This document shows, piece after piece, positions 14,554 to 64,000 of a DNA stretch of 64,000 bases; position 1 is the stretch's first letter, and every line of letters begins with the position of its first letter. Position numbers and translations under genes: made by a program. The DNA is from Eledone cirrhosa. Taxonomy: Eukaryota. The stretch spans positions 23,560,001-23,624,000 of the forward strand of contig OZ024749.1 of assembly GCA_964016885.1 (NCBI GenBank), given 5' to 3'. Under the pieces are notes generated by a model. The model saw only the letters and a list, made by a program, of their open reading frames with translations. It had not been told where the DNA came from and did no database searches.

Positions 14554-17500
14554 ATAAGTGAAGAAGACGCACGAGGTGGCGGAGGTCATGAAATCGCTCC
14601 CGTAAGTTTTGAATTTTTAACATATTTAAATCATTTGTGAAATAACAACTCTTAGTACAAATGCTACGTAAAGCACCCGGCTTGAGCCCCAAAAAATTCG
14701 GACCCAAAATATATTGTTATAAGGCTCAACTATTCCAATATTCAACTTTGTATTGTACACTGTATATCCAAAAAAGAAAATGGCTATAAATGGAAGAAGA
14801 CCCCCCCCCCCCTCCTCTCCTCTGTCTACACTATATAGAACAGCCAAACTCACCAACACCAGAAACTAGATACACCACCCACCTCATCACCTGTGTACAC
14901 TAAACACAACAGCCAGATAACGGCAATTTCACCACCACCGCTCACTACTGCCATCATTACCACCACTATCCCATCACCGCCGCCACCACTCTTCACCCCT
15001 TCACTGACCACCACTGCCTCGGTATCGACATCACCACCACCACTGTCTCAGTATCGCTACCGCCGCCAGTCCTCCACCACACACAGCTGGCTGCTGCCAC
15101 CACATTATAGAATTCCTACTACTAAAAAGGAGGAAGGCATCAAAATATATAGATAGACTCAAAAGAAAAAAGAAAAAACAAACAGCAAAACCAAAGCAGC
15201 ACAGCAACAACAGCAAAAAACGAGAAAAACAAACAGAGAAAAACAAAAACAAAAAAAAACAAAAAACGTAAAGAAAATAAGAATGAAGAGAGAAGCAGGC
15301 GGACGGACAGAGAAGAGGGGGGAAACACTAAAACTAAAAAAACAAAAACTAAGTCAGACATTCGAACACTACATTACAATGAAACTTATGCTTATTCATT
15401 TTTGGGGCCCTTTCTGCCTGTGTGTTTGTTTGATTATGTGTGTTCGTATACAGCGTGGTGATAATGCCACACAAGGGCCAAGTGGAACGGCTATGTAACC
15501 ATACATTCGCCATTCCTCGATAAGAGTGTTTAAATATCGAACATAAACAGTTCGAATAACGGTGAAATGGAGACTAGAACGTCATGTGACAGACTCTCAC
15601 CCAACAGGTGCCCCCTGGCTCAGCAGCAGGAACCTGACTGTCAACCAAATACTGCTGATGTTGGAGGAAGAAGAAGAAGGAAAGGGGCCAGAACCAACTG
15701 GACGAAAGAATTGAATAGAACTGTTATGCAATGTTACCTGAAAAGTAACCCCAAGGAGAGGGGCTACAGGAGACGGATGCATAACATCTGGAACGAGATT
15801 GGTCTATTTAAATTAGATGAACAAAAATTGGCCGGGCAGGCTCAGGTAAAAAGAACTAATGGGTGGATAAGCGAGCTGGAACTGGAGGAACTGAGCAGAG
15901 AGAATGGCTTGGAGATGGCGGGTGTAGTATGCCAGACATGCGAGCCAGTGGGAAATGAAGGTGAAGAGGTCCTGAGAACGGAGGAACCACCCGAAGCAGA
16001 CAATGATCTGAATACTGAGATAAATAATACCTGGAACAGAGATACGGACGCTGAGGAGATGAATGCTGACGGGCTAGGACAAGATTCGGTTGACAACCTA
16101 AATTTAGTGGTAGATGAATTGAACAATGATAGTGGGAGACCTATGAACCTAAGATTTGTAGACAGGAAAAAGTTAAAAGAAACAACAGCTAAGGTAAACA
16201 AAGTCATCCCATACCTTGAGGCGAGGAGCCTTCACCAGTGCAACAATATCCTCAAAGCAATAGCAAATACGGTGAGGAAACTACTTGGTATAAAAGCGAG
16301 AGGAAACAACAGACAAGAAAAAGCAGAGCCGTGGTGGAAGAAACGACTGAGTGGTCAAATCGGGGAAATGAGAAATGACATAGGAAAGCTTGAGTCACTA
16401 CTGAATGGGACACTAAAAAACATAGGCACTAAAAATAGACTGGAAATAAAGTACAAAACTAGGAGGAAAAAGCTAAATATTATCATAGAGGAACTGAAGC
16501 AACGCATTGTAGCAAAGAGTGCAAAAATCAGGCGATACGAGAACAGAGTCAGTCAGTATAAACAGAACCGCATGTTCGACAACAACCAGAAGATGCTGTT
16601 TGGACAGCTTGAGGGGAAAGAAAGAGGCAACGACTTGATCCCTGGGGCGGAGCAAACTAAAACATTCTGGAGAGGAATATGAGAGCAGGATGTTAGACAT
16701 AATGTCCAGGCAGGGTGGATTGAGACAGTACAGAGGGAGATCGGTGAGCAGGCACACCAACAAACTGATTTGAGTATCACAGTTGAAACTCTTAAGGGGC
16801 AGGCCAAAAAACTAACCAACTGGAAATCACCAGGCCCAGATGGTGTGCAGGGGTATTGGATTAAAAATTTAACATCCCTCCACCCGAAGCTGACGGCCAT
16901 GTTCAATGACTGCTTGGTATCGGGTGAGGTGCCAGAGCGGTTGACAAAAGGTACCACAGTTCTGATAATGAAAGACCGAATCAAGGGTAATGATGTTACC
17001 AACTATAGACCTATCACATGTCTGTCCGTAATGTGGAAACTGTTGACGAACATTGTGTCTGAGGAAATCTACCATCACCTCCACACAAACAACTTGTTAC
17101 CGGACGAACAGAAAGGATGCCGAAAGAAGTCACGTGGAACAAAGGACCAGTTACTTATTGATAAGATGGTAATGGGGAATTGCAGGAGACACACTGATCT
17201 TGCCATGGGATGGATAGACTACAGAAAGGCATTTGACATGGTGCCTCATTCTTGGATCACCAAAAGCCTGGAGATCTTCAGGGTGGCAGATAACATCAGA
17301 CAGTTGCTGGGCAGGAGTATGGGGTCCTGGGAGACAGAGTTGACATCAACTGGAGTATCCTTGGGAAGCGTGAAGATCAAGAGAGGTATCTTCCAGGGAG
17401 ATAGCCTGTCCCCTCTGTTGTTTGTCCTTGCCCTGATGCCCTTGACAATTATGCTGCGAAAGGTGAGAGCAGGATACAAGTTGGGAAAGGGAGAGCTTAC

Positions 17501-19030
17501 CATCAATCACCTCCTCTTCATGGACGATCTTAAGCTCTTCGGGAAAAGTGAGGAGTTGGATGTGCTTGTTGACACTGTCCGTATTTTCAGCGGTGATATA
17601 TGTATGCAGTTTGGTATTAGTAAATGTGGAGTCATTGTGATGAGGAGGGGTTGGTTGAGCAGAAGTAACGGGATCCAGATACCAACAGGTGAGATGATAA
17701 AGGAAATTGACTCTGAGGAAGGATACAAGTATTTGGGCGTTCTGGAGGCTGATGGCATAAAGAACAAAAAAATGAAGGAATTGTTAAGAACTGAATACAT
17801 TCGGAGAGTAAGGAGCGTATTGAAGTCACATCTGAACAGCAGAAATGCCATAAGCGCAGTAAATTCCCGAGCTGTGTCTATTATTAGGTACAGTGCGGGA
17901 ATTCTGAGATGGAATGTTGCTGAACAAAAAGAAATGGATAGGAAGACTAGGAAGCTATTGACTATCTACAACATGTTCCACAAGAGGAGTGATGTCGATA
18001 GACTCTACCTAAGGAGATCTGAGGGTGGAAGATGTCTTATCAGCATAGAGGACTGTGTTCAGATGGAGAAAAACAACCTACACAAATACGTGACCTATAG
18101 TAAGGAGCTAATGCTCAGAACTGTACTGAAGGAGGGGTAGGTAGGCCAGGGGATGTCCAAGGAGGAAATAACATCAAGGAGGAAGAGCAGCCTTAAGGGA
18201 AAATCCCTTCATTGTACCTTCTTTGAGAAAACTGAATTTAGAGATCCACAGACATGGAACTGGTTGAGAAGAGGAGACCTCAAAAAGGCTGCAGAAGGAA
18301 TGCTAATGGCTGCGCAGGAGCAGGCCCTCAAAACGAAGTGGTTGAAGCACCATATTTACAAGGAGGAGGCTAGCCCACTGTGCAGGATCTGTGGAGAGAG
18401 AGAGGAGACTGTGGCTCACATTGTGTCCGAGTGTAAACACCTAGCCCAGACCCACTATAAGGGCTGGAGACACGATGTGATTGGCAGGGTGATCCACTGG
18501 CACCTGTGCAAAGTAAACAATTTACCACATTCTGAGAAATGGTATGAGCATAGGCCAGAGGCGGTGATGGAGAACAATCAGGTGAAGGTGCTGTGGGATT
18601 TTAGGATACAGACGGACAAAAAACTGGAACACAATAGACCTGACCTGGTGGTTGTGGACAAAGAAAAAAGATCGTGTCTGATTGTGGATGTGGCCTGCCC
18701 TTTCGACACGAGAGTGCAAGAGAAGGACAGGGAGAAAATTAACCGATACCAGGATCTAAAGTGGGAGGTGAAAAGGATTTGGAACTGCCATGAAGTCAAA
18801 GTGATCCCGATTGTCATAGGCGCACTGGGGACTATCTCCAAAAGTTTCCAGGGATGGTTAAAGAAAATCGGCCCCTTCACGCTTTTTGGAACGCTTCAAA
18901 AGGCATGCTTGCTGGGAACAGCAAGAACACTCCGATACGTCCTGAATATCTGAGGCTGCAGGTAGTGGCTTGATATTCATACCAACGGACTTTCCAGTTA
19001 ACCAACATCAATGACTGAGATTCAAGGAAT
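14554..19030 (+). mobile_element. R4/Dong-clade retrotransposon copy 3 (full length), followed by (TAA)n to ~19110
   Basis: Collinear with copy 2 across leader, ORF and 3' UTR. Confidence 0.9.
15567..18953 (+). pseudogene. Dong polyprotein pseudogene with two in-frame stops
   Basis: ORFs 15567-16682, 16770-18140 and 18153-18953 share one frame; TGG>TGA at 16680-16682 and ACA>TAG at 18138-18140 relative to copy 2. Confidence 0.93.
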
Positions 19031-19036
19031 AACAAC

Positions 19037-19111
<75 letters not shown>

Positions 19112-19451
19112 CAAAATAATAATAATATAATAATAATATTGATAATATATTGACAGTATTATAAGAGATTTATCCCAATTTTTAAAGTAATTGACTTATA
19201 GACGTGTTTAAACGTACTTCGGCTCCAAGCTAAATTTTTCTATTTTCGCTCTCTCAGACGTAGTTTAACAGAAATGACTATGGCAGCGTTGCGTACGGTA
19301 AAATATCGCCCCACTAGCCCACTAGCCAACGGCATAATGCCGCCACAATGGAGTTTAAATATGCATATAAGCCTATATTTACAGTTATACATATGTACAT
19401 ACATATATTTACAAATACAGATGTATATGAACATAAATGTAAATAAACCTT

Positions 19452-19594
<143 letters not shown>

Positions 19595-19641
19595 GGCCAT
19601 ATATATGCATATATGGACATATATTATATATATATATATAT

Positions 19642-19764
19642 AACGAAGGAAATGTGGTAAGGAACCAGCTGGACCATAACGCACCAAAGTACTCAATACT
19701 TAGGGTAGTAGAGTGGGTAATAGGAACGAGTAGGACCCCGACGGCTGAGCTCAAGCCATTTCGA
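19642..19764 (-). mobile_element. PLE pLTR-type fragment with the 3' half of a hammerhead (family C)
   Basis: Matches 20476-20610 and 48718-48815; minus strand GAAA-(T/C)GGCT(TGAGCTC)AGCCG-TC-GGGG. Confidence 0.65.
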
Positions 19765-20477: not shown

Positions 20478-20672
20478 GAGGAAATGTGGTAAGGAACCAG
20501 GTGGACAGTAACGAACCAAAGTACTCAATACTTAGAGTAGTAGAGTGGGTAATTGGAACGTGTAGGACCCCGACGGCTGAGCTCAAGCCGTTTCGACGGC
20601 TAATTCTAGACTGGTCCAGAATTAGCCGTCGAAACGGCTTCAGCCCAGCTGTCGGGGTCCTACTCGTTCCTA
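20476..20672. mobile_element. Family C fragment folded back at hammerhead stem II
   Basis: Inverted arms ~20552-20607 / 20618-20673, each ending in GAAA-CGGCT...AGC(C/T)G-TC-GGGG. Confidence 0.7.
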
Positions 20673-20716: not shown

Positions 20717-20833
<117 letters not shown>

Positions 20834-20834
20834 A

Positions 20835-21533
20835 ATAATGGAGCTGCGGCGCTGCAAATGGGTTACATATGAAAAAGTTTGTCCTCATCAGTGGCCATCC
20901 AACCGTCGTAAGCATTTCCTCGCATTAAAGGCCATATACCTCAGGTTGGTGCGAGCAACGGCTAAAAATAAGTCGTTGGGACACGTAAATAATGGGGACG
21001 CTAGGGTAGACGAACAAAATGGTTTAAGCAGCAGAAAGTGATGAAGAAGGAAACAAGTCCCAGATTTCTATGAATATAAATTCGGTGGAATCGTGAACGA
21101 GAGAATAAAGACCATCAAACCCGGTTGAAATGTGAGCCAGGAAGGAATTTCGCACAGGACTAACGGGAGGAAGAAGGGGTCTGGTCTGCGAATTCGGTAA
21201 ACATAAGTTCTGTGAAGTCGCAGACGAGAGAGAGAGAGAAAAGAAATTCATACCGGCTTGGACAAGTGCCCGCGAGAAAAGGATTATGGACAGGTCAAAC
21301 GGGAAGAAAGGGGAGAAGGAGAGGTAGCAACAGAGAGTGAGTGAGTGAAAGGTGAGGAAGAGAATAACAGAGAGAGAAACTGCTAGAAAGGGTAAAGACA
21401 CAAAGAACGAAACAGACTGGTGGCAACGGAGGAAAAAATATATGTGTAAATATCATAATACTGGAGCTGCGGCGCTGCAAATGGGTTACATATGAAAAAG
21501 TTTGTCCTCATCAGTGGCCATCCAACCGTCGTA

Positions 21534-21538
<5 letters not shown>
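20835..21538 (-). mobile_element. Terminally redundant non-coding unit (623-nt period) carrying the scrambled hammerhead-like motif
   Basis: 20839-20915 ~ 21462-21538; pyrimidine-rich minus strand; flanked by (TA)n; no credible ORF. Confidence 0.7.
20881..20982 (-). ncRNA. Putative scrambled-order (pseudoknotted) hammerhead-like RNA, copy A
   Basis: Minus strand GTCC-CAACGACT/AGCCGTTG-CTCGCA-CCAACC-TG-AGGTAT-A-TGGCC-TTTAA-TGCGAG-GAA-ATGCTT-ACGAC-GGTTGG-AT-GGCCA-CTGATGA-GGAC. Confidence 0.65.
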
Positions 21539-28533: not shown

Positions 28534-28719
28534 ATACTTGGGGAGGGTCATATTTGTGTAATAACAGAACACACTCGCTGTTTGGTTGGTTTTCGTTTTT
28601 CGCTTCTGTGTCTTTTATATCGGTAATCTAATTTATTTGGTCCTCAATGTTGCCATTGACTGACCGACGGTCAAAAATAATGCAGATACAATATAGACAC
28701 AAACACATATATATAGTTT

Positions 28720-28761
28720 ATCAAAGTTCTTTCGTTGCACATCTGCAACATCGTCAGTGGT
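28720..28761 (-). ncRNA. Minimal hammerhead motif in the PLE 3' region
   Basis: ACCA-CTGACGA-T-GTTGCA(GATG)TGCAAC-GAAA-GAAC-TT-TGAT; one helix I mismatch and an extra nt before stem II. Confidence 0.65.
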
Positions 28762-29080
28762 GCTATTGTTTCCTCCCGTTACATTGTATGTTTACGCCAT
28801 TTTTATTTAGTCTGTCTATATATTTATTTATTTATTTGTTTGTTTGTTTATTTTATTTTGTCTTCTTTGCGCATGCGTTTGCGTGTGTGTATAGTGTTTT
28901 GTTTGATGTGTGTTCGTGATTGTATTCTATGTATTCAATGTATTCTATCTTTACTAGTGTGTGTGTATATGTGTTTGTTGTTATTGTGCTTGTGTATGTA
29001 TTTATTTATTTATTTATCTATTTATTTATTTATCTATACTCTCTTAGGTCAGTGTTGTTTGTTTGGGTATTGTTGTTATT

Positions 29081-32062
29081 CTATTCATTCTTTCTGTTTA
29101 GTCTTGGCCTTCTAAGTTCTATTTCACTGGCCTCTCTGATTTGCCTAACTGCTGGGTCATTTTTATGTTTAGATATTATTCTAATTTCTATGTTGTCTAT
29201 GTTGCCGTCGTTTTCTTGTCTGGCATGTTCGTATAGTACTGATCCGTTTTTTCGTCCTTTTAGTTCCCCCCAGTGTTGGTCTATCCTTTCACCTATGCTA
29301 CGAGCTGTCTCGCCTATGTATGTAGTTGTCATGTTTCTGCAAGTACCCTCTGTACATCTTATGCTATAGACTACGTTTCTAGTTTTACAGATTATCCGGG
29401 GTTTACCTTACATATGATACATTTCATATTAGTACAGTGGGTTTTCTTAAAAGGGTAGGTTTTGCTGATAAGGGATTTTATGGTGGTTCCTGGCCTTTCT
29501 ACCACCTTAATCTTTAAGTGGGTCTTTCTCAGGGCCATTCTACACTGGTTAGCTAATTTCCCTCCAGGGGTAGCGTCCACAAACATGACACTCTGGTATC
29601 TCTGGTTGTCGTACCATGAGGTGGCTTTCCTTATCTCATGTCTAGCCCTATCTAAGCTATTCCATCATTTGCTCCTGTATAATGGGCAAATTCCTTTCAT
29701 GTCCAGTTCTATGAGGGTCTTATACTTCTCCATGTCTCCTACGTATACTTTGAATCTGTCTCTTTGGTTGTAGGCAGAGAACTGCATGCGGTTGAGGAAG
29801 TGTTGGATGTGTCTTTCCATTTCTGTTGGGTCGCACATGCGGGACACATTCTTCATCACTCGTACCAAATCTGCGATCAGAATATTAAATTTAGCACTAC
29901 TGGACATTGCTGAGTTTTTGAGTATCAGGTATTTGGAGGCCATGGGTTTAGCATAGTTTGAGTGGAGAATTTCGGCTCTCTCGTCTATAGTGTTAATCCA
30001 GAGTTCCGTGTCTAATACAGGTAGTCTATTGTTAGGGTGATTGGAAGGGAAGTCGATATTTACAGTTATACTCTGGTGTATGGAATTAGCTATCTGCTGG
30101 ATGCTTTCCATTGTGCTACGTTCTAAATCAAACTTATTAGTGCTCTCTAGTGGGGATGTTCTTAGAACTATATTGATATCGTCTACGTAACGAGAGTACA
30201 TGATGAGGTCTATGGAGCTCTCATTAAGGAGATCTTTAAGTCTCCTTTCCCACCATACCATGAAAAGGTTGGCAACATCACCAGCTATGCTGACGCCAAT
30301 GGCTGCTCCCTCATTTTGGGTGTAGATCTTCTCGTTGAACTTGAATATGTGGCCCTTTAGGGTAGTTTTGATACTAGCTCCTATTGCATGTGCGACCATT
30401 TTTCTTACCTGATCATGTTTTGGGGGGTCCGTATAGCTTTGATCCACCCAATCCACCTTCCCATGGGAGTCTTTTTTGCCATTGAGGTTATGGTGGGGGG
30501 TCTACCTCTTATGGGTCTACTAGGGCAGAAACATCTAAGGTCATGGCTGTCTAGGTAGTCAGTGTCGTAGGTAAGTCTAAGTAGGAGTCCCAGTTCGTCT
30601 GTGTCGACGTCGCAGAACTCCACCTCACTCTCAATGATCATCTCCACACATTTTTCCACAGCAAAATCAATGTTAATGGATGGGTACAGTGATAACACAT
30701 GCATGCTGCCTATTATGCAGTTGGATAGGTTCCTGTTTTTGTTGCACTCACTGATTCTGCTGAGGAGGTCCTCTGTACTGTCACATACATCTGGGGACAT
30801 CTTGATTATGGGGCGTATAACCATTGAGAGGAAGTAGGAGATCCTGTAGTTGCTAGCTAAATTAGCTCCGCATACGGGTTTTGTTGGTGGTCCTGTTGTC
30901 GGGTCGTCGACTGTCTTGTAGTCTTTGCGGAGCCCATACAAGGGTGGTATGCCATTGTTAGACGCCTGGAAGTTGTTGGCAGTGCGTCTGCTTGGCTTTA
31001 GGATGTCAGTCCACATCATCATGTGAGCGTTGAGGATTTTCTCTCTCCCATCATGTGTTTGCTGTGCAATTTCGCTCGTGTTGGTGATGTGGGGTTGCAG
31101 AGCCTTGATGTAGTTCGGCATGCTATCTATTGACATCCTACCAGACTTATCCGTGGGTAGACATACTACCTCACCATCCCTTGTGCGCTGCTTGAGGCTA
31201 ACCAAGCCTTCTACAGGTTTCCTCCCAAATTGTTGGGCCTCTGGTCTGCTCTGTCTCTTAGTACACCGGCCTACTATTTGTCTAATCTTATTTCTAGTTA
31301 TGGTGAACTGTACATCTGTCTCGTCATCTATTTGTTGTGGTATGCAAACTCTTTTATTAAAGAGTAGCCTCGTAGGATAGATATTACCCATCTTATATGT
31401 TTTGTCAGCTGGGTTGAAAAATAGTTTCTCTAAGGGTTTGTCATTATATCTATCGTCATAGTTGGGTGTTGCTATTATTGTTATCATGGTTGTTGTTGTT
31501 GTTCCTATCATTAGCATTATTATTAGTGTTATGATTGCTAGATGTATTGTTGTTTACTTCACCGTTATTGTTGTTGTTACTGTTATTTCTACCATTGTGG
31601 TTGTTACTTTTATTATGTTCCTTGTTTTTGTTGTGTCTATCATTAATGTTGCTACACGTATTGCCACTGTGGTTATTGTTGTTGTTCGTATTGTTACCGT
31701 TATTACTACTGTGGTCGCTGCTGCTGTGTCTGTGGTTAATGTTTCTATTATTATTATTATTGTGGTTGTTGTTGTTGTTCTGTCTATCGTTAGTATTATT
31801 ACCATTATTACTATTTCTCACTCTCCTGCTATTGTTATTGTTATGGCTGTTATTTCTATACTCAGAGTTATTGTTTATATTACTACTACCGTTATTATTG
31901 TTGTTGTTGTTGTTGTTTACTTTTGCATTCCAACGTATTTCTGTGAAACACTTTTCCAGCTCCGTTTTGCACTCAATAGGGTTAATCTTTTTGTAGATGG
32001 CAAATTTTGGTGGTAGCTGCAGGATTTGTTGTTCTTGTTCACTGTTTAAAGTGTTCTCATAA
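29081..32062 (-). pseudogene. PLE RT/GIY-YIG polyprotein pseudogene (3 frameshifts, 1 in-frame TGA)
   Basis: LPPKFA, PTDKSG, PPLYGLRKD, PPTKPVCGA, CDSTEDLL, GSM(H)VLSLYPSI, GAAIG..A.LFMVWW, YSRYVDD, LPVLD, MFVDATPGG, C..C zinc motifs, VVYSIRC...YIGETARSIGERIDQH, QIREA. Confidence 0.9.
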
Positions 32063-37405: not shown

Positions 37406-37730
37406 CTATGAGTTCCCAAACATAGGAGGCGAATGTTTTGTCTGGTTTGATCTGACAGGTCTCCTGACGGAATGAGTATGGGCATACCACCGGGTCATAA
37501 AGTTATTGGAAGTCATGCCGATGTAAGTCTTTTTGTTCTTGCAATCATCGGTGTCTGTGAAGACATCGCATTTGTATACGATATCATTTGTCAGGCATTT
37601 GTTTTCAAGTGGGCAGGCTTCCTTATTTAAGCAATTACACAAGGCCCCAGTCCGGGGATTGGGTTCGGAGGTGGTTGGTTTATTTAATTTTTTAGAATTG
37701 TGATTGGCTATATTCCTAGCTAGATTAGGT
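37406..37730 (-). pseudogene. PLE linker/GIY-YIG fragment
   Basis: RLSYS..N, CNCLNKEACPLENKCL, IVYKC...TYIGMTSNNF..R...H. Confidence 0.85.
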
Positions 37731-38233
37731 GTGGTGGAGTAGGAGAGTCTTATTGTGGTGGAGTAGGAGAGTCTACACAGGTAAAAATAAAAATGTAAAA
37801 AACATAGATATAAAAAACATAGATATAAAAACACAGATACACACACACATATATATATATATATACGTACGCACGCACACATACGGAGGCATTCGTATAC
37901 ATATACAGAACGTATACACACATAAGCACACTCAGACACGTAGATACAGCCATATGAATAAATGAGTACAAATATAAAATCGGCTGCGAAACAACAGAAT
38001 ATATCTGGAGTGGAAAACGCAAGTGACATGTGGGATCATGTGGTGAAAGAAAATGTGGAAGTAAAATGTGGAATGTGAAGATATTAGGTAAGTGAAACGA
38101 AAAGTAGGCGGCGGGGTTCTGGTGGATGTGAAGTAAAAATAAAAATAAAATTAAAAATAAAATTAAAAATGAAAGTAAATCAGAAAGAGAAATCTGTAAA
38201 GAGGATAATTTAAGGAAAGTGAAGAATAAGACT

Positions 38234-39510
38234 TTATGGAGGATAAGTATCTGAAAGTGAGTTAAGTTTATATGAGCTGGAAAGCAAGTGTGATTTTATG
38301 TGTGGGCAACTGGTGAAAATTTCTGTTTTTGTATTTAGGCAGATTTTTGGCGATTTAAAGTTCTGTAAAATCCAATATTTTTCACTTATGCAGAGTGTGC
38401 ATCTTCTTGTTCTTCTTACATATTCTTTAGGTTGGTTAAAAATTGACCAATACAATTTATATTGGATACCTTGGTCTTTCAAATCCCATATTCTGCTAGC
38501 CAGAGCTGTTGTGAATCTTTTTTCTGGATGTCGGAAAGATGCGACATGTGAGTAATAACGTGTTTTGAATTTGTCTTGTGTCATACCCACATATCGTTCG
38601 CTGGTGGCGTGTTGGTTGTTGCTGGTGGTTGTCACTTTAGCTGCATATACAATGGCTTTGGTGTTGCATTTACCTTGTAATAGGCATTCACTTTTGACTC
38701 TACAGTAGCATTTTTGATGTTCTATGTGTGAGTTCTTATTGATGATATAATATTTAACAGGGGGACCGCAGGAGTAGCTAATTTTGACACAGTTTCTATT
38801 GAAGATCTTATAGTATCTATGTGTTCTAGGGAAATGTTTATCTAAGAGCTCTAGGAATGTTTGCCTAATTAGTTTTAACTGCTAGAGAGTAGGGGTGTGA
38901 ACCAGATTATTTTTCTTTTCCTATTATTATGTTTAAAAGAGTTAGTATTGTTGGGTATGTACTTAATCGGTTCGCTAAATCCGCTATTTTGAAGGGCTTT
39001 ATTATTGTAGGGGGATGCCTTATTGAAAATAGCTTCTGAGGAAGAGAGGGTGGAGATCCTACGGCTAATATTAAGGTAGAAGGTTTTAAAAACTATAGGA
39101 GGATGACAAGAGCCTTTATTTATACATTTTAAATTTTCATTAGGTTTATGGTATGGTTCATAAGAAGCAGTAGGCAAATCTAGGTTTATATCTAGAAAAT
39201 TAACATTGGAAAGGTTAGTGTCAATAGTCATTTTAAGATTAAAACTAGCGAAGGTTTTTATTAAGTCTTTCCTTAGTCTATCTAAGTTATGGCGTATGGT
39301 AGTATGGGAAAGTATTAGACCATCGTCGCGATAAACCCGCAAAATATGGTTAGGGATTTTTTCTTTAAGTGTGTGTAGGAGGAATAGGCCGACTAAATCA
39401 CAAACATCAGCACTGTCAAAAGAGCCCATTGAGACATCGAATGGGTTCTCTGGGTTAGATATTTTTACCCAAGTGTCACTATCAGTAAAGAGTAGAGGGT
39501 TTCTAGCTTG
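38234..39510 (-). pseudogene. PLE RT (YRDD-type) + GIY-YIG fragment, 5'-truncated; clade probably Nematis/Neptune-like
   Basis: FDVSMGSFDSADVCDLVG, VYRDDGL, VNFLDINL, YHKPN, RKIIWF, KHFP..KIFN..VKISYSC, CYCR..CLLQGKC, IVY...YVGMT..FKTR, CTLCISEK. Confidence 0.9.
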
Positions 39511-39559
39511 TTTCTAGCATGTTTCTCGTGTTACTTCCCCATTTTCTTTCACTACCTGA

Positions 39560-48519: not shown

Positions 48520-48650
48520 TTATTCCGGGTTGAATCGGAGGTAACCACAGTAAGTAAGGTACTCAATACATTGCAGAGTATAAAAGTTTTAATATAGATG
48601 AGATTATACAGGACTAGAACTGTTTCATTCTTTAGAAATCATCAGGAATC
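48520..48650 (-). mobile_element. Family B fragment with hammerhead 48601-48650
   Basis: Matches 26845-26975. Confidence 0.75.
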
Positions 48651-48671
48651 AATATATATATATATATATAT

Positions 48672-48813
48672 ATAGGAACCAGTAAGACCCCGACGGCTGA
48701 GCTCAAGCCGTTTCGACGGGGTCTTACTGGTTCCTATTACCCACTCTACTACCCTAAGTATTGAGTACTTTGGTGCGTTATGGTCCACCTGGTTCTTTAC
48801 CACATTTCCTTCG

Positions 48814-48815
<2 letters not shown>
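48672..48815. mobile_element. Family C fragment with fold-back junction
   Basis: Antisense piece 48672-48717 joined to a sense piece from 48718. Confidence 0.7.
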
Positions 48816-48906
<91 letters not shown>

Positions 48907-49039: not shown

Positions 49040-52000
49040 TGTTGGTGTTGTTATGTGATGGCGTTGTAGGTGATGGTGTTGTTATGTGGTGGGGGTGTTG
49101 GTGATGGTGTTGTTATGTGGTGGTGGTGTTGGTGATGGTGTTGTTATGTGATGGTGGTGTAGGTGATGGTATTGTTATGTGGTGGTGGTGTTGGTGATGG
49201 TGTTGTTATGTGATGGTGGTGTAGGTGATGGTGTTGTTATGTGATGGTGGTGTAGGTGATGGTATTGTTATGTGGTGGTGGTGTTGGTGATGGTATTGTT
49301 ATGTGGTGGTGGTGTAGGTGATGGTGTTGTTATGTGATGGTGGTGTAGGTGATGGTGTTGTTATGTGGTGGGGGTGTTGGTGATGGTGTTGTTATGTGAT
49401 GGTGGTGTAGGTGATGGTATTGTTATGTGGTGGTGGTGTTGGTGATGGTATTGTTATGTGGTGGTGGTGTAGGTGATGGTGTTGTTATGTGATGGTGGTG
49501 TAGGTGATGGTGTTGTTATGTGGTGGGGGTGTTGGTGATGGTATTGTTATGTGGTGGTGGTGTTGGTGATGGTGTTGTTATGTGATGGTGGTGTAGGTGA
49601 TGGTGTTGTTATGTGGTGGTGGTGGTGTTGTTGTTATGTGATGGTGTTGTAGGTGATGGTGTTGTTATGTGGTGGGGGTGTAGGTGATGGTGTTGTTATG
49701 TGATGGTGGTGTAGGTGATGGTGTTGTTATGTGGTGGGGGTGTTGGTGATGGTGTTGTTATGTGGTGGTGGTGGTGTTGTTGTTATGTGATGGTGTTGTA
49801 GGTGATGGTGTTGTTATGTGGTGGGGGTGTAGGTGATGGTGTTGTTATGTGATGGTGTTGTAGGTGATGGTGTTGTTATGTGGTGGGGGTGTTGGTAGTG
49901 GTGTTGTTATGTGGTGGGGGTGTTGGTGATGGTGTTGTTATGTGGTGGGGGTGTTGGTGATGGTGTTGTTATGTGGTGGTGGTGGTGTTGTTGTTATGTG
50001 ATGGTGTTGTAGGTGATGGTGTTGTTATGTGGTGGGGGTGTAGGTGATGGTGTTGTTATGTGATGGTGTTGTAGGTGATGGTGTTGTTATGTGGTGGGGG
50101 TGTTGGTAATGGTGTTGTTATGTGGTGGGGGTGTTGGTGATGGTGTTGTTATGTGGTGGGGGTGTTGGTGATGGTGTTGTTATGTGGTGGGGGTGTAGGT
50201 GATGGTGTTGTTATGTGGTGGTGGTGTTGGTGATGGTGTTGTTATGTGGTGGGGGTGTAGGTGATGGTGTTGTTATGTGGTGGGGGTGGGGGTGATGGTG
50301 TTGTTATGTGGTGGTGGTGGTGTTGTTGTTATGTGGTGGGGGTGTTGGTGAAGGTGTTGTTATGTGGTGGGGGTGTTGGTGATGGTGTTGTTATGTGTGG
50401 GGGTGGGGGTGATGGTGTTGTTATGTGATGGGGTGTTGGTGATGGTGTTGTTATGTGGTGGGTGTGTTGGTGATGGTGTTGTTATGTGGTGGTGGTGGTG
50501 TTGTTGTTATGTGGTGGGGGTGTTGGTGAAGGTGTTGTTATGTGGTGGGGGTGTTGGTGATGGTGTTGTTATGTGGTGGGGTGGTGTTGTTGTTATGTGG
50601 TGGGGGTGTTGGTGAAGGTGTTGTTATGTGGTGGGGGTGTAGGTGATGGTGTTGTTATGTGATGGTGGTGTAGGTGATGGTGTTGTTATGTGGTGGGGGT
50701 GGGGGTGATGGTGTTGTTATGTGGTGGTGGTGGTGTTGTTGTTATGTGGTGGGGGTGTTGGTGAAGGTGTTGTTATGTGGTGGGGGTGTAGGTGATGGTG
50801 TTGTTATGTGATGGTGGTGTAGGTGATGGTGTTGTTATGTGGTGGGGGTGGGGGGTGGTGTTGTTATGTGATGGTGGTGTAGGTGATGGTGTTGTTATGT
50901 GGTGGTGGTGGTGTTGTTGTTATGTGGTGGGGGTGTTGGTGAAGGTGTTGTTATGTGGTGGGGGTGTAGGTGATGGTGTTGTTATGTGATGGTGGTGTAG
51001 GTGATGGTGTTGTTATGTGGTGGGGGTGGGGGTGATGGTGTTGTTATGTGGTGGTGGTGGTGTTGGTGATGGTGTTGTTATGTGGTGGTGGTGTTGGTGA
51101 TGGTGTTGTTATGTGGTGGGGTGTTGGTGATGGTGTTGTTACGTGGTGGGGGTGTTGGTGATGGTGTTGTTTTGTGGTGGGGGTGTTGGTGATGGTGTTG
51201 TTATGTGGTGGGGGTGTTGGTGATGGTGTTGTTATGTGGTGGGGGTGGTGGTGCTGTTATGTGGTGGGGGTGTTGGTGATGGTATTGTTATGTGGTGGTG
51301 GTGTTGGTGATGGTGTTGTTATGTGGTGGGGGTGTTGTTATGTGGTGGTGGTGGTGGTGATGGTGTTGTTATGTGATGGTGGTGTAGGTGATGGTGTTGT
51401 TATGTGGTGGTGGTGGTGTTGTTGTTATGTGGTGGGGGTGTAGGTGATGGTGTTGTTATGTGATGGTGGTGTAGGTGATGGTGTTGTTATGTGGTGGGGA
51501 TGGGGGGGATGGTGTTGTTATGTGATCGTGTTGTAGGTGATGGTGTTGTTATGTGGTGGTGGTGGTGTTGGTGATGGTGTTGTTATGTGTAGGTGGTGTT
51601 GGTGATGGTGTTGTTATGTGGTGGGGTGTTGGTGATGGTGTTGTTACGTGGTGGGGGTGTTGGTGATGGTGTTGTTTTGTGGTGGGGGTGTTGGTGATGG
51701 TGTTGTTATGTGGTGGGGATGTTGGTGATGGTGTTGTTATGTGGTGGTGGTGGTGGTGTTGTTATGTGGTGGGGGTGTTGGTGATGGTGTTGTTATGTGG
51801 TGGGGGTGTTGGTGATGGTGTTGTTATGTGGTGGGGGTGTTAGTGATGGTGTTTTTATGTGGTGGGGGTGTTGGTGATGGTGTTGTTATGTGGTGGGGGT
51901 GTTGGTGATGGTGTTTTTATGTGGTGGGGGTGGTGTTGTTATGTGGTGGGGTGTTGGTGAAGGTGTTGTTATGTGGTGGGGGTGTTGGTGATGGTGTTGT

Positions 52001-52050
52001 TATGTGGTGGGGGTGTTGGTGATGGTGTTGTTATGTGGTTGTGGTGTTTC
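49040..52050. repeat. 31-bp G/T-rich minisatellite, consensus GGTGATGGTGTTGTTATGTGGTGGGGGTGTT (~95-100 units)
   Basis: GTTATG recurs every 31 nt (e.g. 49081, 49112), with shorter variants interspersed. Confidence 0.95.
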
Positions 52051-52670
52051 TGAAGGATTTTGCTGATCCTGTGGTTTTGTTGTTGGTGGTGTTGGGGATA
52101 GTGATGTTATGTGGTGGTGGTGGTGGTGGTGATTTTGGAGATGGTGTTACTATGTGGTGGTGGTGCTGTTGGTGATGGTGTTGTTTTATGGTGGTGGTGG
52201 TGGTGGTGGTGGTGTTCTTGATGGTGTTTATTGTTGGTTTTATTGTTGGTGTTACTAATATTGTTGTGACTGTTTCATGGTGTTGTTGTTGGTTTTATTT
52301 TTGTGTTAGTCTTTGTTATTCTGGCATTGTCTTTTTTGTCATCGTTGGAATCCTTCAAACGTGGTGGTAATGGAACTACTGTCGTTGTAGTAGTTGGTAT
52401 TGTTGTTGTCATAGCACTCGTAGCTTTATACATTCTGTTTTGGGGGCTGCTGCCGTCGTAGCTGGTGGTGTTGGAACTCCTGACGTCGTGGTTAGTTTTC
52501 TTGTTGTTGTCATAGTAGTCGTTCCTTGTGTAGTTATGTGTATGGAGGTGTTGGAGCTCCTGGTGTTGTAGTTATGCTGTTATCATTGATGGCTTGTTAT
52601 GTGTCGGGATTGTGGTGCTGCTGTTGTTGTTGTTGTGTCAGTTGGAGAAGAATGTTGTTAAAACAGAAAA

Positions 52671-61423: not shown

Positions 61424-63345
61424 TCAGGCCAAGTCGAGGGTTTTCATTGTTGAGGTATCTCTTGATTTGAAGGTGCGCAAGATCCACCCGCTGTACTTTC
61501 TTGCAGTAAGACAGACCGAGTCAAGGTGTTCTCTGAATTTTAGGCTGGTTCCCATGTGGATGCTTTGATCTTTCACACACTGTTTTTCCATTATTTGTTG
61601 TCCTGATGGGTTTCTGTAGTTTGTTGTATTTTTCAGATATTGATCTGTTCCGTAGCGAATTAGTTCAAACTTCTTATCATTGAACAACATCTTGTTTGTT
61701 TCCTGCCATTTGTATATGGTGCTTAGGTCCTTTTGTAAGGCCTCTGTATCCACCTCGTCTTTGATTTGTCTCATGACCCTGGTGTCATCAGCAAAGGATG
61801 AGACGTTGCTGGTTGTATCTTCATCTATGTCAGAGATGAGGATGAGAAACAGGATTGGGCCGAGTACTGTACCTTGAGGAACACTGCTGGTCACAGGTGA
61901 TGGTGTTGAATGGGTTCCATTCACAGTGACTGTTTGAGTTCTATTTGTAAGGAACACATGTATCCATGTACCAACGTTTCCTCCTACTCCTAGCTTTCGA
62001 AGTTTGTGTCCCAGGATGCCATGATCTACCTTGTCAAATGCCTTGGCAAAGTCGAGGTAAATAACATCTGTGTTGTATCCATTCTCTAGATTTTCTAGGA
62101 TTTGGTCATGGTGTGCCAGTAGTTGGGAAAGACATGATCTACCTAACCTGAATCCATGCTGATTGCAATTCATCAGATTGTTGGATTCCAGGAACTCAAC
62201 CAGTTTTTCACGAACTATTCTTTCGAAGACCTTGATAATATGTGATGTCAGTGAGATTGGTCGGTAGTTCTTTGGTTTTGATTTGCTGTCCCCTTTATGT
62301 ATTGGAGTTATGTGTGCTTCTTTATATGTATTTGGTATTTTGCCATTCTCCATAGATTCCTTCCATATCATGCAAAGGGGTTTCAACAATTGTACCTTGC
62401 AGTTTTTAAGTATCATGGCATTGAAACCATCAGGCCCCGCAGCCGAGTGCATGGAGAGCTTGTCTATGGCTCTTTCTATGTCTTCTGGGTTGAAATCAAT
62501 GTAGGATAGGGTAGGTTTAGTATGGTCGATATCCTTGAAGAATTCTCCTGGGTCATGGAACTTCATGGTTTTAGATGGCTCACTGAAGACACTTTCATAC
62601 TGTTGACCCAACATTTCTGCCATTTCAATAGTGTTATTCACTACATCCCCATTTTGTCTCTGGAGAAGTCCTATTGTTGACTTGGTATTCGAGTATTTCT
62701 TTGCAAAACTGTAGAAACATTTTGGATTTTTATTGATGTTTTCTATGGCTCTCTTTTCTGCATTGTTACGTTCTTCATCATAGTGTTGTTTTAGATTGTC
62801 TTCTAATCTGTATATTTGGTCAAGGACTTTCTGTAGTTCATGTTTTGATGTCAGCTTAGATGTTTTGTTTCTTAGTCTTGACCTTTTGCGCATCAGGATC
62901 TTTCGCTCCCGTGCTACTGTTTTTTGTGGATTTGGTTTTCTTAAGAGGAATATTTTTTGCACATATTTCTTCGATCTTGTTTAAGAATTTCTTGTGTTTA
63001 TCTGGCCCAGTAAGGTAGAGATCCCAGTCAATGATTTGTAACTGGTTGTTAATAGTTTCCCAATTTGCCTGGTGATAATCATACCTGCATAGCTTTGGCA
63101 TGTCCTTTTGTTTAAGAGTTGTGGCATTGGGCTCATTACCAAAGTGTAAATGCATTTCAATAATATTGTGGTCTGAAAGGATTGTTGGGGTTGAGTGAAG
63201 GTCAAATAGCGTGTCCTCGTTGTTGGTGAAAACCAAGTCGATCGCATTGTTATTTCTAGTTGCTTCTGTCATCATTTGTTTGAGGTATAATTTCTCTGTG
63301 ACTTCCAACAGTTTGGCTGCCTGTATTTGTTCAGCTTTTGTCCCC
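61424..63345 (-). pseudogene. CR1-like LINE ORF2 fragment (APE end + RT), frameshifted near 62960, truncated at both ends
   Basis: ATRNNNAIDLVFTN, LSDH (APE); SAAGPDG, NYRPISLTS, QHGFR, YLDFAKAFDKVDH, VPQGTVLGPILF, FADDT. Confidence 0.92.
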
Positions 63346-64000
63346 AGTTTTAGTATGTAAAAGGTTATATATTTATATTTAATTTTAATTACAGTCTACT
63401 CTATCATAATGTATTAAAGGTACCTAAAGGAAGTTGATTACTCCTTATTATATATCGCTATAATTGAATTTCCCACACAAAGTGCTATATCATTGTAAAT
63501 ACAGTCCACTCTCAAAACATATCAAAGGACCAATTAGAATTTTGTCTACATAACTCCTGGTAAGCTAAGGAGCAGCGTACGGCTGTTTGCATGATAAAAT
63601 CAAATACATCTCTTGGGTAAACAAATACATCCCTCATTTACAATGTCATTAATCTATCCTCAAGTTATACATGCATATATAAATTCATATATAATTTATT
63701 GCACCACCCTACATACAAGTTAGACAGATCCCTAATGTTAATAAATTAATCCTATATATATCTGATGTTATTACTCTATACATTTAATTACACATGCATA
63801 TATAATTCACTGTCGTATCTAGTATTTAAAGTTTATATAAACTGTATTATATTTCAATCCCTATATAATTATAAGTAATTAAAAGTAATTATATTAAAAG
63901 TTGGTGTTTATGGGGATATTTCTAGGGTATAAAGTTATAGATAGATAGAATGATTTGTGTCGAGGAAAGGGTGGATCAGAGGGTGTAGTGTAGTGGTGGA

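Follow-up and report, generated by a model that had tools for sequence, protein, structure and literature searches.

Results

A reversed-order hammerhead core in a repeated element

The 64,000-nt window of Eledone cirrhosa DNA analysed here (contig OZ024749.1, positions 23,560,001 to 23,624,000) carries on its minus strand what is very likely a self-cleaving hammerhead ribozyme of reversed strand order, with a split helix II, which recurs in every repeat of its carrier, a non-autonomous Penelope-like retroelement that probably descends from Naiads. The whole insertion (20815–21538, minus strand, as are all ribozyme features below) is flanked on both sides by (TA)n and consists of the 3′ half of a 5′-truncated unit, followed by a complete 623-nt non-coding unit that ends in (AT)n. 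The upstream repeat noted in the first-pass annotation is present at 21458–21538, but it begins inside the GAAA block and hence runs only from the helix III 5′ strand through CUGAUGA and the tail, without the cut site or the helix II strands; the locus holds one whole ribozyme and one 3′ half. GAAA sites downstream of the upstream core offer 0–1 bp for a conventional stem II.

Every strand listed at first pass is found by direct reading of the sequence between 20982 and 20881. In 5′ to 3′ order the whole ribozyme starts with the P0 strand UGUC (20980–20983, pairing with 20880–20883), a side hairpin with stem CAACG/CGUUG and a U-rich loop (20956–20978), the displaced helix II 5′ strand UCGCA, which supplies positions 10.2–10.6 (20950–20954), and the 5′ strand CCAACC of helix b, which ties helices I and II (20944–20949). 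The non-bulged strand of a k-turn-like loop follows (3n U, 2n G, 1n A; 20941–20943), then the helix III 3′ strand GGUAU with U16.1 as its last base (20936–20940), A17 with the predicted scissile bond AUA^U (20934–20935), the helix I strand 3′ of the cut, UGGCC, extendable by a U (20929–20934), and a UUAA link from helix I to helix II (20925–20928), whose conservation is partly imposed by our search patterns and filter. The second half comprises the helix II 3′ strand UGCGA with position 11.1 (20919–20924), G12 A13 A14 A15.1 with the helix III 5′ strand (20911–20918), the bulged k-turn strand of a 3-nt bulge, G1b, A2b and C3b (20905–20910), the helix b 3′ strand GGUUGG (20899–20904), the helix I strand 5′ of the core, GGCCA (20892–20896), the putative catalytic CUGAUGA, C3 to A9 (20885–20891), and G10.1, the partner of 11.1 in a lone pair, followed by the P0 3′ strand GACA (20880–20884).

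The core nucleotides of the hammerhead class, CUGANGA, GAAA and NUH, are thus all present, each adjoins the right helices, and they run in the order NUH, GAAA, CUGAUGA, as had been claimed from the first reading. Helices I, II and III adjoin the core, with helix II built from three strands; the cyclic order CUGANGA, GAAA, NUH with nested helices that marks types I–III is not what is seen here. By analogy with known hammerheads the cut is predicted between 20935 and 20934, the same bond as first proposed.

On a descriptor of four 5-bp helices placed around GAAA and CUGANGA (maximum 20), the window site scores 20/20; when the window was dinucleotide-shuffled 200 times, the best of the 293 candidate sites that arose scored 19, a value seen once. 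No hammerhead family appears among the 150 of 205 matches listed from an Rfam scan of the window, all 150 being microsatellite-driven or unrelated, in agreement with the earlier expectation that standard searches miss the ribozyme. Plain free-energy folding gave no signal (z −1.56), which is expected because the helices cross.

The copy in the window differs from the other copies of its family at 20 positions, two of them within the ribozyme: G20919, where 65 of 70 other copies have C, and U20911, where 69 of 70 have C. Both are private to this copy, and G20919 affects how the helices are drawn. The CTCGCA/TGCGAG pairing of the first reading is indeed helix II, but its sixth pair involves G20919 and is not the family state, in which C11.1 faces G20884 directly after CUGAUGA. 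In the window copy G20884 stands opposite G20919 and the pair is not formed; G20919 may pair with C20955 instead, and the mismatch may lower the predicted activity of this copy. Base 10.1 is the first G of GGAC in the window family, and its closing helix is therefore GACA/UGUC and not the GGAC/GTCC first drawn, although sister families do have a full GGAC/GUCC or, in L190, L205 and L207, GGAU/AUCC. Helix III had been drawn one pair too long; it is present and covaries, but it is 5 bp, with A20941 in the k-turn-like loop. The lone 10.1–11.1 pair, the k-turn and the Penelope/Naiad context had all been overlooked.

Covariation across diverged families

Diverged families were collected with loose patterns that specified only the UUAA link, GAAA and CUGANGA, with the first 100 places listed for each and a subset of these fetched. 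Two such patterns matched the 3.0-Gb genome (G000) 1987 times versus 138 in the reversed control and 17,293 times versus 574, counts that are upper bounds and include unrelated repeats. The commonest match of the first pattern (L032 and similar) is apparent retrotransposon coding sequence with descriptor scores of 11–13/20 and was discarded, and two ordinary-order hammerhead candidates in other repeats (L037, 1500–1570; L060, 1500–1620) were set aside. The anchor GAAA-N23-CUGANGA yielded 89 distinct 71-nt blocks, of which 64, in 19 clusters, passed a filter that took no account of pairing (U16.1 and UAA both required); truncated blocks, blocks with indels and chance blocks are among the 25 removed.

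Weighted pairing in the 64 blocks is 84%, versus 25–45% when slid, and each helix exceeds a family-swap control (0/2000 draws as good). A 35-copy ungapped alignment was chosen from better-pairing blocks, and its copies are related, so the shuffle comparisons that follow are not p-values: 88.6% of 805 cells are paired, versus 66.8% when shuffled (0/500) and 28–46% when slid. Both sides have changed in 199 cells versus 60 in the shuffles, and in 18 of the 23 pairs, although two of five whole-structure measures, pairs with both-side change (48/500) and pair types (18/500), lie within the shuffle range. Among the helices, b has 89.5% of its cells paired and 5 of 6 pairs varying on both sides, III has 92% and I, over 6 pairs, 91.4%, whereas helix II is merely 77–81% paired, with its last pair broken in 12 of 35 copies, many of the older copies having decayed. 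The displaced upstream strand pairs as helix II, with 11.2–11.3, in 53 of the 64 blocks. The lone pair joins 10.1, after CUGANGA, to 11.1, before GAAA, 35 nt apart, and takes G-C, A-U, U-A and G.U forms; it is formed in 56 of 64 blocks, and in the 35 copies 11.1–10.1 is C-G in 10, U-A in 8, U.G in 7, A-U in 6 and unpaired in 4.

Four helices and the lone 10.1–11.1 pair therefore covary across diverged families in this genome, and the conserved RNA structure is real and not a product of chance. This supports helices I and III and the CCAACC/GGUUGG helix of the first reading, and its junction with a side hairpin at helix II is also borne out, in that P0 and the hairpin change in step in several families; the hairpin stem is CAAUA/UAUUG in sister families and is missing from the family of L069, L087 and L110. 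A fossil or chance pairing in a repeat that spreads regardless of what these strands do would accord with the drift that most genomic copies undergo after insertion, but compensatory changes between families have set new pairs in every helix, and the pattern counts, some unrelated repeats included, stand well above their reversed controls. We consider this explanation, already largely refuted by covariation, next to negligible.

The 71-nt spacing is retained among the blocks at a mean column identity of 73%. Similarity among distant families is largely limited to the ribozyme, and window positions 2240–2108 and L067 align there only, although within the young family the ribozyme is barely more conserved than the body (1.5% vs 1.9%). 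Families with other spacing (L043, L053, L092, L102 and L192) parse into the same four helices, and in some of them the upstream strand can supply the whole of helix II. An older reversed-order ribozyme at 2135–2205 (minus strand) of the window belongs to a sister family with A10.1–U11.1, and L172, L196, L200 and L220 represent further such families with units of 630–706 nt. These A10.1–U11.1 families account for the majority of the first 100 places listed for the 17,293-match pattern and look far commoner than the window family.

A k-turn consensus between helix III and helix b

In the standard k-turn consensus a 3-nt bulge is followed by G.A and A.G pairs between two helices (PMC5061560). 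The loop between the 5-bp helix III and helix b has NNN-G-A-Y facing N-G-A, with G1b in 64 and A2b in 62 of the 64 blocks, the opposite G (2n) in 54 and A (1n) in 60, and all four purines in 50, in agreement with that consensus; the GA of the bulged strand was not required by the retrieving patterns. C-G is found at −1b/−1n in 42 of 64 blocks. Position 3b–3n is C.U in 30 of 64 blocks, including the window copy, and U.U in 18, in sister families. The box C/D k-turn carries U.U at 3b–3n. A C at 3b with U at 3n fits the rule for k-turns that fold in ions alone, and box C/D and U4 k-turns fold only with an L7Ae-family protein (PMC4382518). From the consensus we infer a kinked fold of this arm.

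These features raise the question of whether the RNA could instead be a non-catalytic k-turn or box C/D-like RNA that binds 15.5K/L7Ae or a retroelement protein, its hammerhead-like words being due to descent or coincidence. The CUGA at 20944–20941 and the CUGAUGA do look like boxes D and C, and the sister families with U.U at 3b–3n would suit such a role. However, the partner of the CUGA strand is the loop strand that precedes helix b, not CUGAUGA, so that by covariation there is no pairing of box C with box D into a k-turn. In the 64 blocks all four bases occur at position 7 of CUGANGA (51 U, 6 G, 4 A, 3 C), and G is absent from position 17 (55 A, 8 C, 1 U), both as in hammerheads, and helices I and III and the 10.1–11.1 pair covary exactly around the catalytic words. 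A purely protein-binding RNA thus seems to us highly unlikely, and the hammerhead reading is retained below.

The carrier has Penelope-like anatomy

The ribozyme site lies in a repeat: of 2356 candidates in G000, the 40 scored gave 90 matches, and a 35-place exact pattern for the ribozyme 3′ half matched 966 times versus 0 in the reversed control. At 30 loci adjacent units are 615–626 nt long, 5′-truncated, often in tandem, and have an (AT)n end, and some loci carry an inverted 5′ part. Among 37 ends measured past the predicted cut, 12 lie at 104 nt, 8 at 112 nt and 8 at 64 nt, the others being scattered over 72–124 nt. Inverted parts end at 64 nt, whereas forward ends are mostly at 104 or 112 nt, which gives a tail of 40–48 nt. 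Such a tail and insertion anatomy have been described for Penelope-like elements (PMC8557442; PMC11167929), and the combination of non-coding tandem units, 5′ truncation, an inverted 5′ part with tail and a microsatellite target is that of a non-autonomous member of the group. Only one frame of at least 120 aa is listed for the unit; it spans 142 aa from stop to stop and abounds in F, S and L. Contigs of two runs contain sequence of the element, an indication of presence only. The carrier is probably a non-autonomous Penelope-like retroelement, derived from Naiads, with a ribozyme in each repeat.

No autonomous partner was found in G000, nor in particular a Naiad-type one with N-terminal GIY-YIG and RT that shares the pseudo-LTR. 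One Penelope family of the window was rejected as a partner on the grounds that CUGANGA is missing from the 520 nt that follow the ORF in 30 of 30 loci, and a second on the grounds that most of 30 loci have an ordinary-order core. Penelope ORF fragments near ribozymes (L069, L098, L100, L201, L205, L209 and L217) are, as far as inspected, of opposite orientation, located downstream or set apart by (TA)n. A search for RT near nine further loci gave no match, and two Naiad-derived patterns had 0 matches in G000.

Relationship to published hammerhead types

Reversed block order is itself already known, and the first-pass view that this topology was undescribed does not hold: type SGC (HRIMA-1 and variants; Eckert, Friedrich, Weinberg and Weinberg 2023) has been published and cleaves in vitro at the bond predicted here (PMC10085705). 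That report describes type SGC from metatranscriptomes only, with none in genomes of known organisms, while the element described here is a high-copy animal retroelement. The two share the S-G-C order, the core, a short link from helix I to helix II (4–5 nt here, within the 0–8 nt of the published type) and an extra helix, here the covarying helix b, that ties the other strands of helices I and II, and they pose the same distance puzzle between this tying helix and helix III (PMC10085705).

The difference lies in helix II. In the model of Eckert et al. CUGAnGA is inseparable from its helix II strand, which follows it directly, and their descriptor demands at least two such pairs (PMC10085705). 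Here helix II is split, with only 10.1 after CUGAUGA, block C is interrupted, and the helix II 5′ strand and the helix b partner have moved to the 5′ end. At least two helix II pairs straight after CUGAUGA(U)G are found in 1 of 64 blocks, and in 0 of 64 with one inserted base. Helices III and b are moreover joined on both strands through the k-turn consensus. Judged by its sequence, the window element is an SGC circle reopened between 10.1 and 10.2, and it should work like an SGC hammerhead although it lacks one of that type's defining features. Published descriptors miss the element because they assume that the helix II strand always stays with CUGAnGA. The split-helix-II form breaks this stated rule, and helix II split in this way together with a k-turn is a new form. 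Non-circularly permuted hammerheads are now placed in animal genomes at high copy number, beyond rare environmental RNAs.

Type CSG, described from two metagenomic sequences, shares the reversed cyclic order but is opened elsewhere, and its helix II is unsplit (PMC10085705). The hammerheads of non-LTR retrozymes and of Penelope pseudo-LTRs are of type I, mostly minimal, and dimerise through a short stem III (PMC7229834; bioRxiv 10.64898/2026.07.22.740005; PMC6765202). The element resembles non-LTR retrozymes in its non-coding tandem units with one hammerhead each, its Penelope-like insertion and its presumed processing to unit length, but in place of a type I hammerhead per repeat it has the reversed order and a stable helix III of 5 bp. 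The text of the 2026 retrozyme preprint uses type I only (bioRxiv 10.64898/2026.07.22.740005), and that of PMC13725137 only cites hammerhead permutations. A search of the open-access literature, judged by title, abstract or passage, gave no report of permuted hammerheads in Penelope-like elements or of a hammerhead with a k-turn.

Candidate reversed-order hammerheads in Naiads

Naiads are stated by Craig et al. (2021) to lack canonical hammerheads, with core words in some (PMC8557442). We parsed the supplement of that study by eye around CTGATGAG (8 of 8 places), CTGATGA (places 3–62 of 62) and CGAAAC (places 1–60 of 81); its Naiad rows number at least 53. At the places so examined, among the matches listed, 16 consensus records of the Naiad part parse as reversed-order hammerheads: 8 read as split-helix-II SGC and 8 as CSG, the latter from nematodes wherever a host is named. 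A further record parses more weakly as split-helix-II SGC. In two of the 16, both from Octopus, the reversed order stands at the end of the consensus together with the k-turn pattern, as in the window element. The element also shares with Naiads the (TA)n targets, 5′ truncation, inverted 5′ parts and tail, although Naiads encode GIY-YIG and RT and the element is non-coding (PMC8557442). Because no Naiad ORF turned up in G000, descent is argued from these sequence likenesses, on which we think it probable that the element derives from Naiads. The records offer a testable answer to why Naiads seemed to be without the ribozyme borne by other Penelope-like elements.

A proposed fold and the choice between cis and paired units

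One unit would fold as a rod, built of P0, helix b, the k-turn and helix III and capped by a terminal loop of 20 nt. The cut site, GAAA and one strand each of helices I and II would lie in the loop; CUGAUGA, 10.1, the displaced strand of helix II and the second strand of helix I would lie at the rod's base, so that docking of the loop on the base could rebuild a standard hammerhead core. The k-turn may bend the arm back and let a unit dock on itself; we put the prospects of such cis folding at about even. The tandem scheme of the first-pass annotation, in which the GAAA strand comes from the next unit, is disfavoured, since within a unit the cut strand and the GAAA strand would be kept in one active site by the UUAA link, which is short and conserved. 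Another assembly of two units is possible, in which the ribozyme is active solely as a strand-swapped dimer or in tandem, with helices b and III formed within a unit and helices I and II between units. The loop of each unit would be cut by the CUGAUGA of its neighbour, two k-turns and two core bends could close a two-fold ring, and cleavage would then depend on tandem copies.

The geometry is finely balanced. In a crude model (with an A-form rise and three core layers assumed) a kink of 40–60 degrees leaves a gap of 24–36 Å versus ~25 Å allowed, which makes cis folding borderline, while helix b stacked on helix II sets the ends 59–69 Å apart, so that docking must be between units. Helix II abuts helix b without a linker, which favours stacking and hence the dimer, but its top pair is often broken, as would suit a hinge, and a k-turn, with an included angle of 50 degrees, is a ready device for folding back (PMC5061560). 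Copies of the element are often in tandem, one Naiad consensus has by eye a near-straight 15-bp rod of helices III and b that would be unable to fold back, canonical Penelope hammerheads are thought to be dimeric (PMC6765202), and Eckert et al. raise the same distance problem for SGC (PMC10085705). Against this, the SGC RNAs of the published work cleave nearly to completion when made from single-unit templates, although no concentration test was seen in the main-text sections consulted (PMC10085705). We regard the strand-swapped assembly as a serious contender that falls a little short of an even chance, and a fold that is neither cis nor dimeric or tandem as improbable.

By either route, tandem transcripts cut at A20935 would yield RNAs one unit (~620 nt) long, possibly circularised, as is suggested by the processing of canonical Penelope ribozymes (PMC6765202), and a Penelope-type RT/endonuclease could then copy them into (TA)n. 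The biological role of cleavage may be no more than secondary, because insertion of RNA by a Penelope-like protein went ahead in vitro when no ribozyme had cleaved (PMC11167929). As a natural candidate ribozyme with a built-in k-turn, the element is a compact case for cis versus strand-swapped catalysis and for protein gating. More speculatively, non-circularly permuted hammerheads may be the standard ribozyme of Naiads and their non-coding satellites in several animal phyla, the window form being a fourth strand arrangement (split helix II) with the k-turn as a gate, so that cleavage would require an encounter of two units or, in U.U families, kinking of the arm by a protein of the 15.5K/L7Ae type. 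This is a tentative proposal that may well prove wrong; if true, it would amount to a natural copy-number- or protein-gated self-cleaving ribozyme with on the order of ten thousand genomic copies.

Other repeats in the window

Another short repeat, at 307 (plus strand) and 26969 and 48645 (minus strand), has by eye an ordinary minimal type I hammerhead. A broken Penelope-like RT/GIY-YIG element lies at ~28700–31553 (minus strand; 24,166 first-look candidates in G000) and has an ordinary-order core at 28757, with CUGACGA, a helix II hairpin and GAAA. Penelope-like fragments with a C-terminal GIY-YIG occupy both strands of 37406–39513 (65,867 first-look candidates), with no CUGANGA in the first 520 nt past the ORF. 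A short repeat flanked by (TA)n, with a tail and a partial copy in inverted orientation, an anatomy also Penelope-like, is found at 20480–20670, 19640–19760 and 48650–48830, and again in L065, L082, L098 and L102.

Three tandem copies of a non-LTR retrotransposon of ~4.6–5 kb each, with (AAT)n ends and an RVT_1 match in an 869-aa frame, span ~6965–19150 (plus strand); we take this element to be R4/Dong-like. LINE-like frames of 518 and 179 aa at 61424–63395 (minus strand) were read as RT and endonuclease. A G-rich 31-bp minisatellite of ~99 copies, with extreme strand skew, fills 49043–52216.
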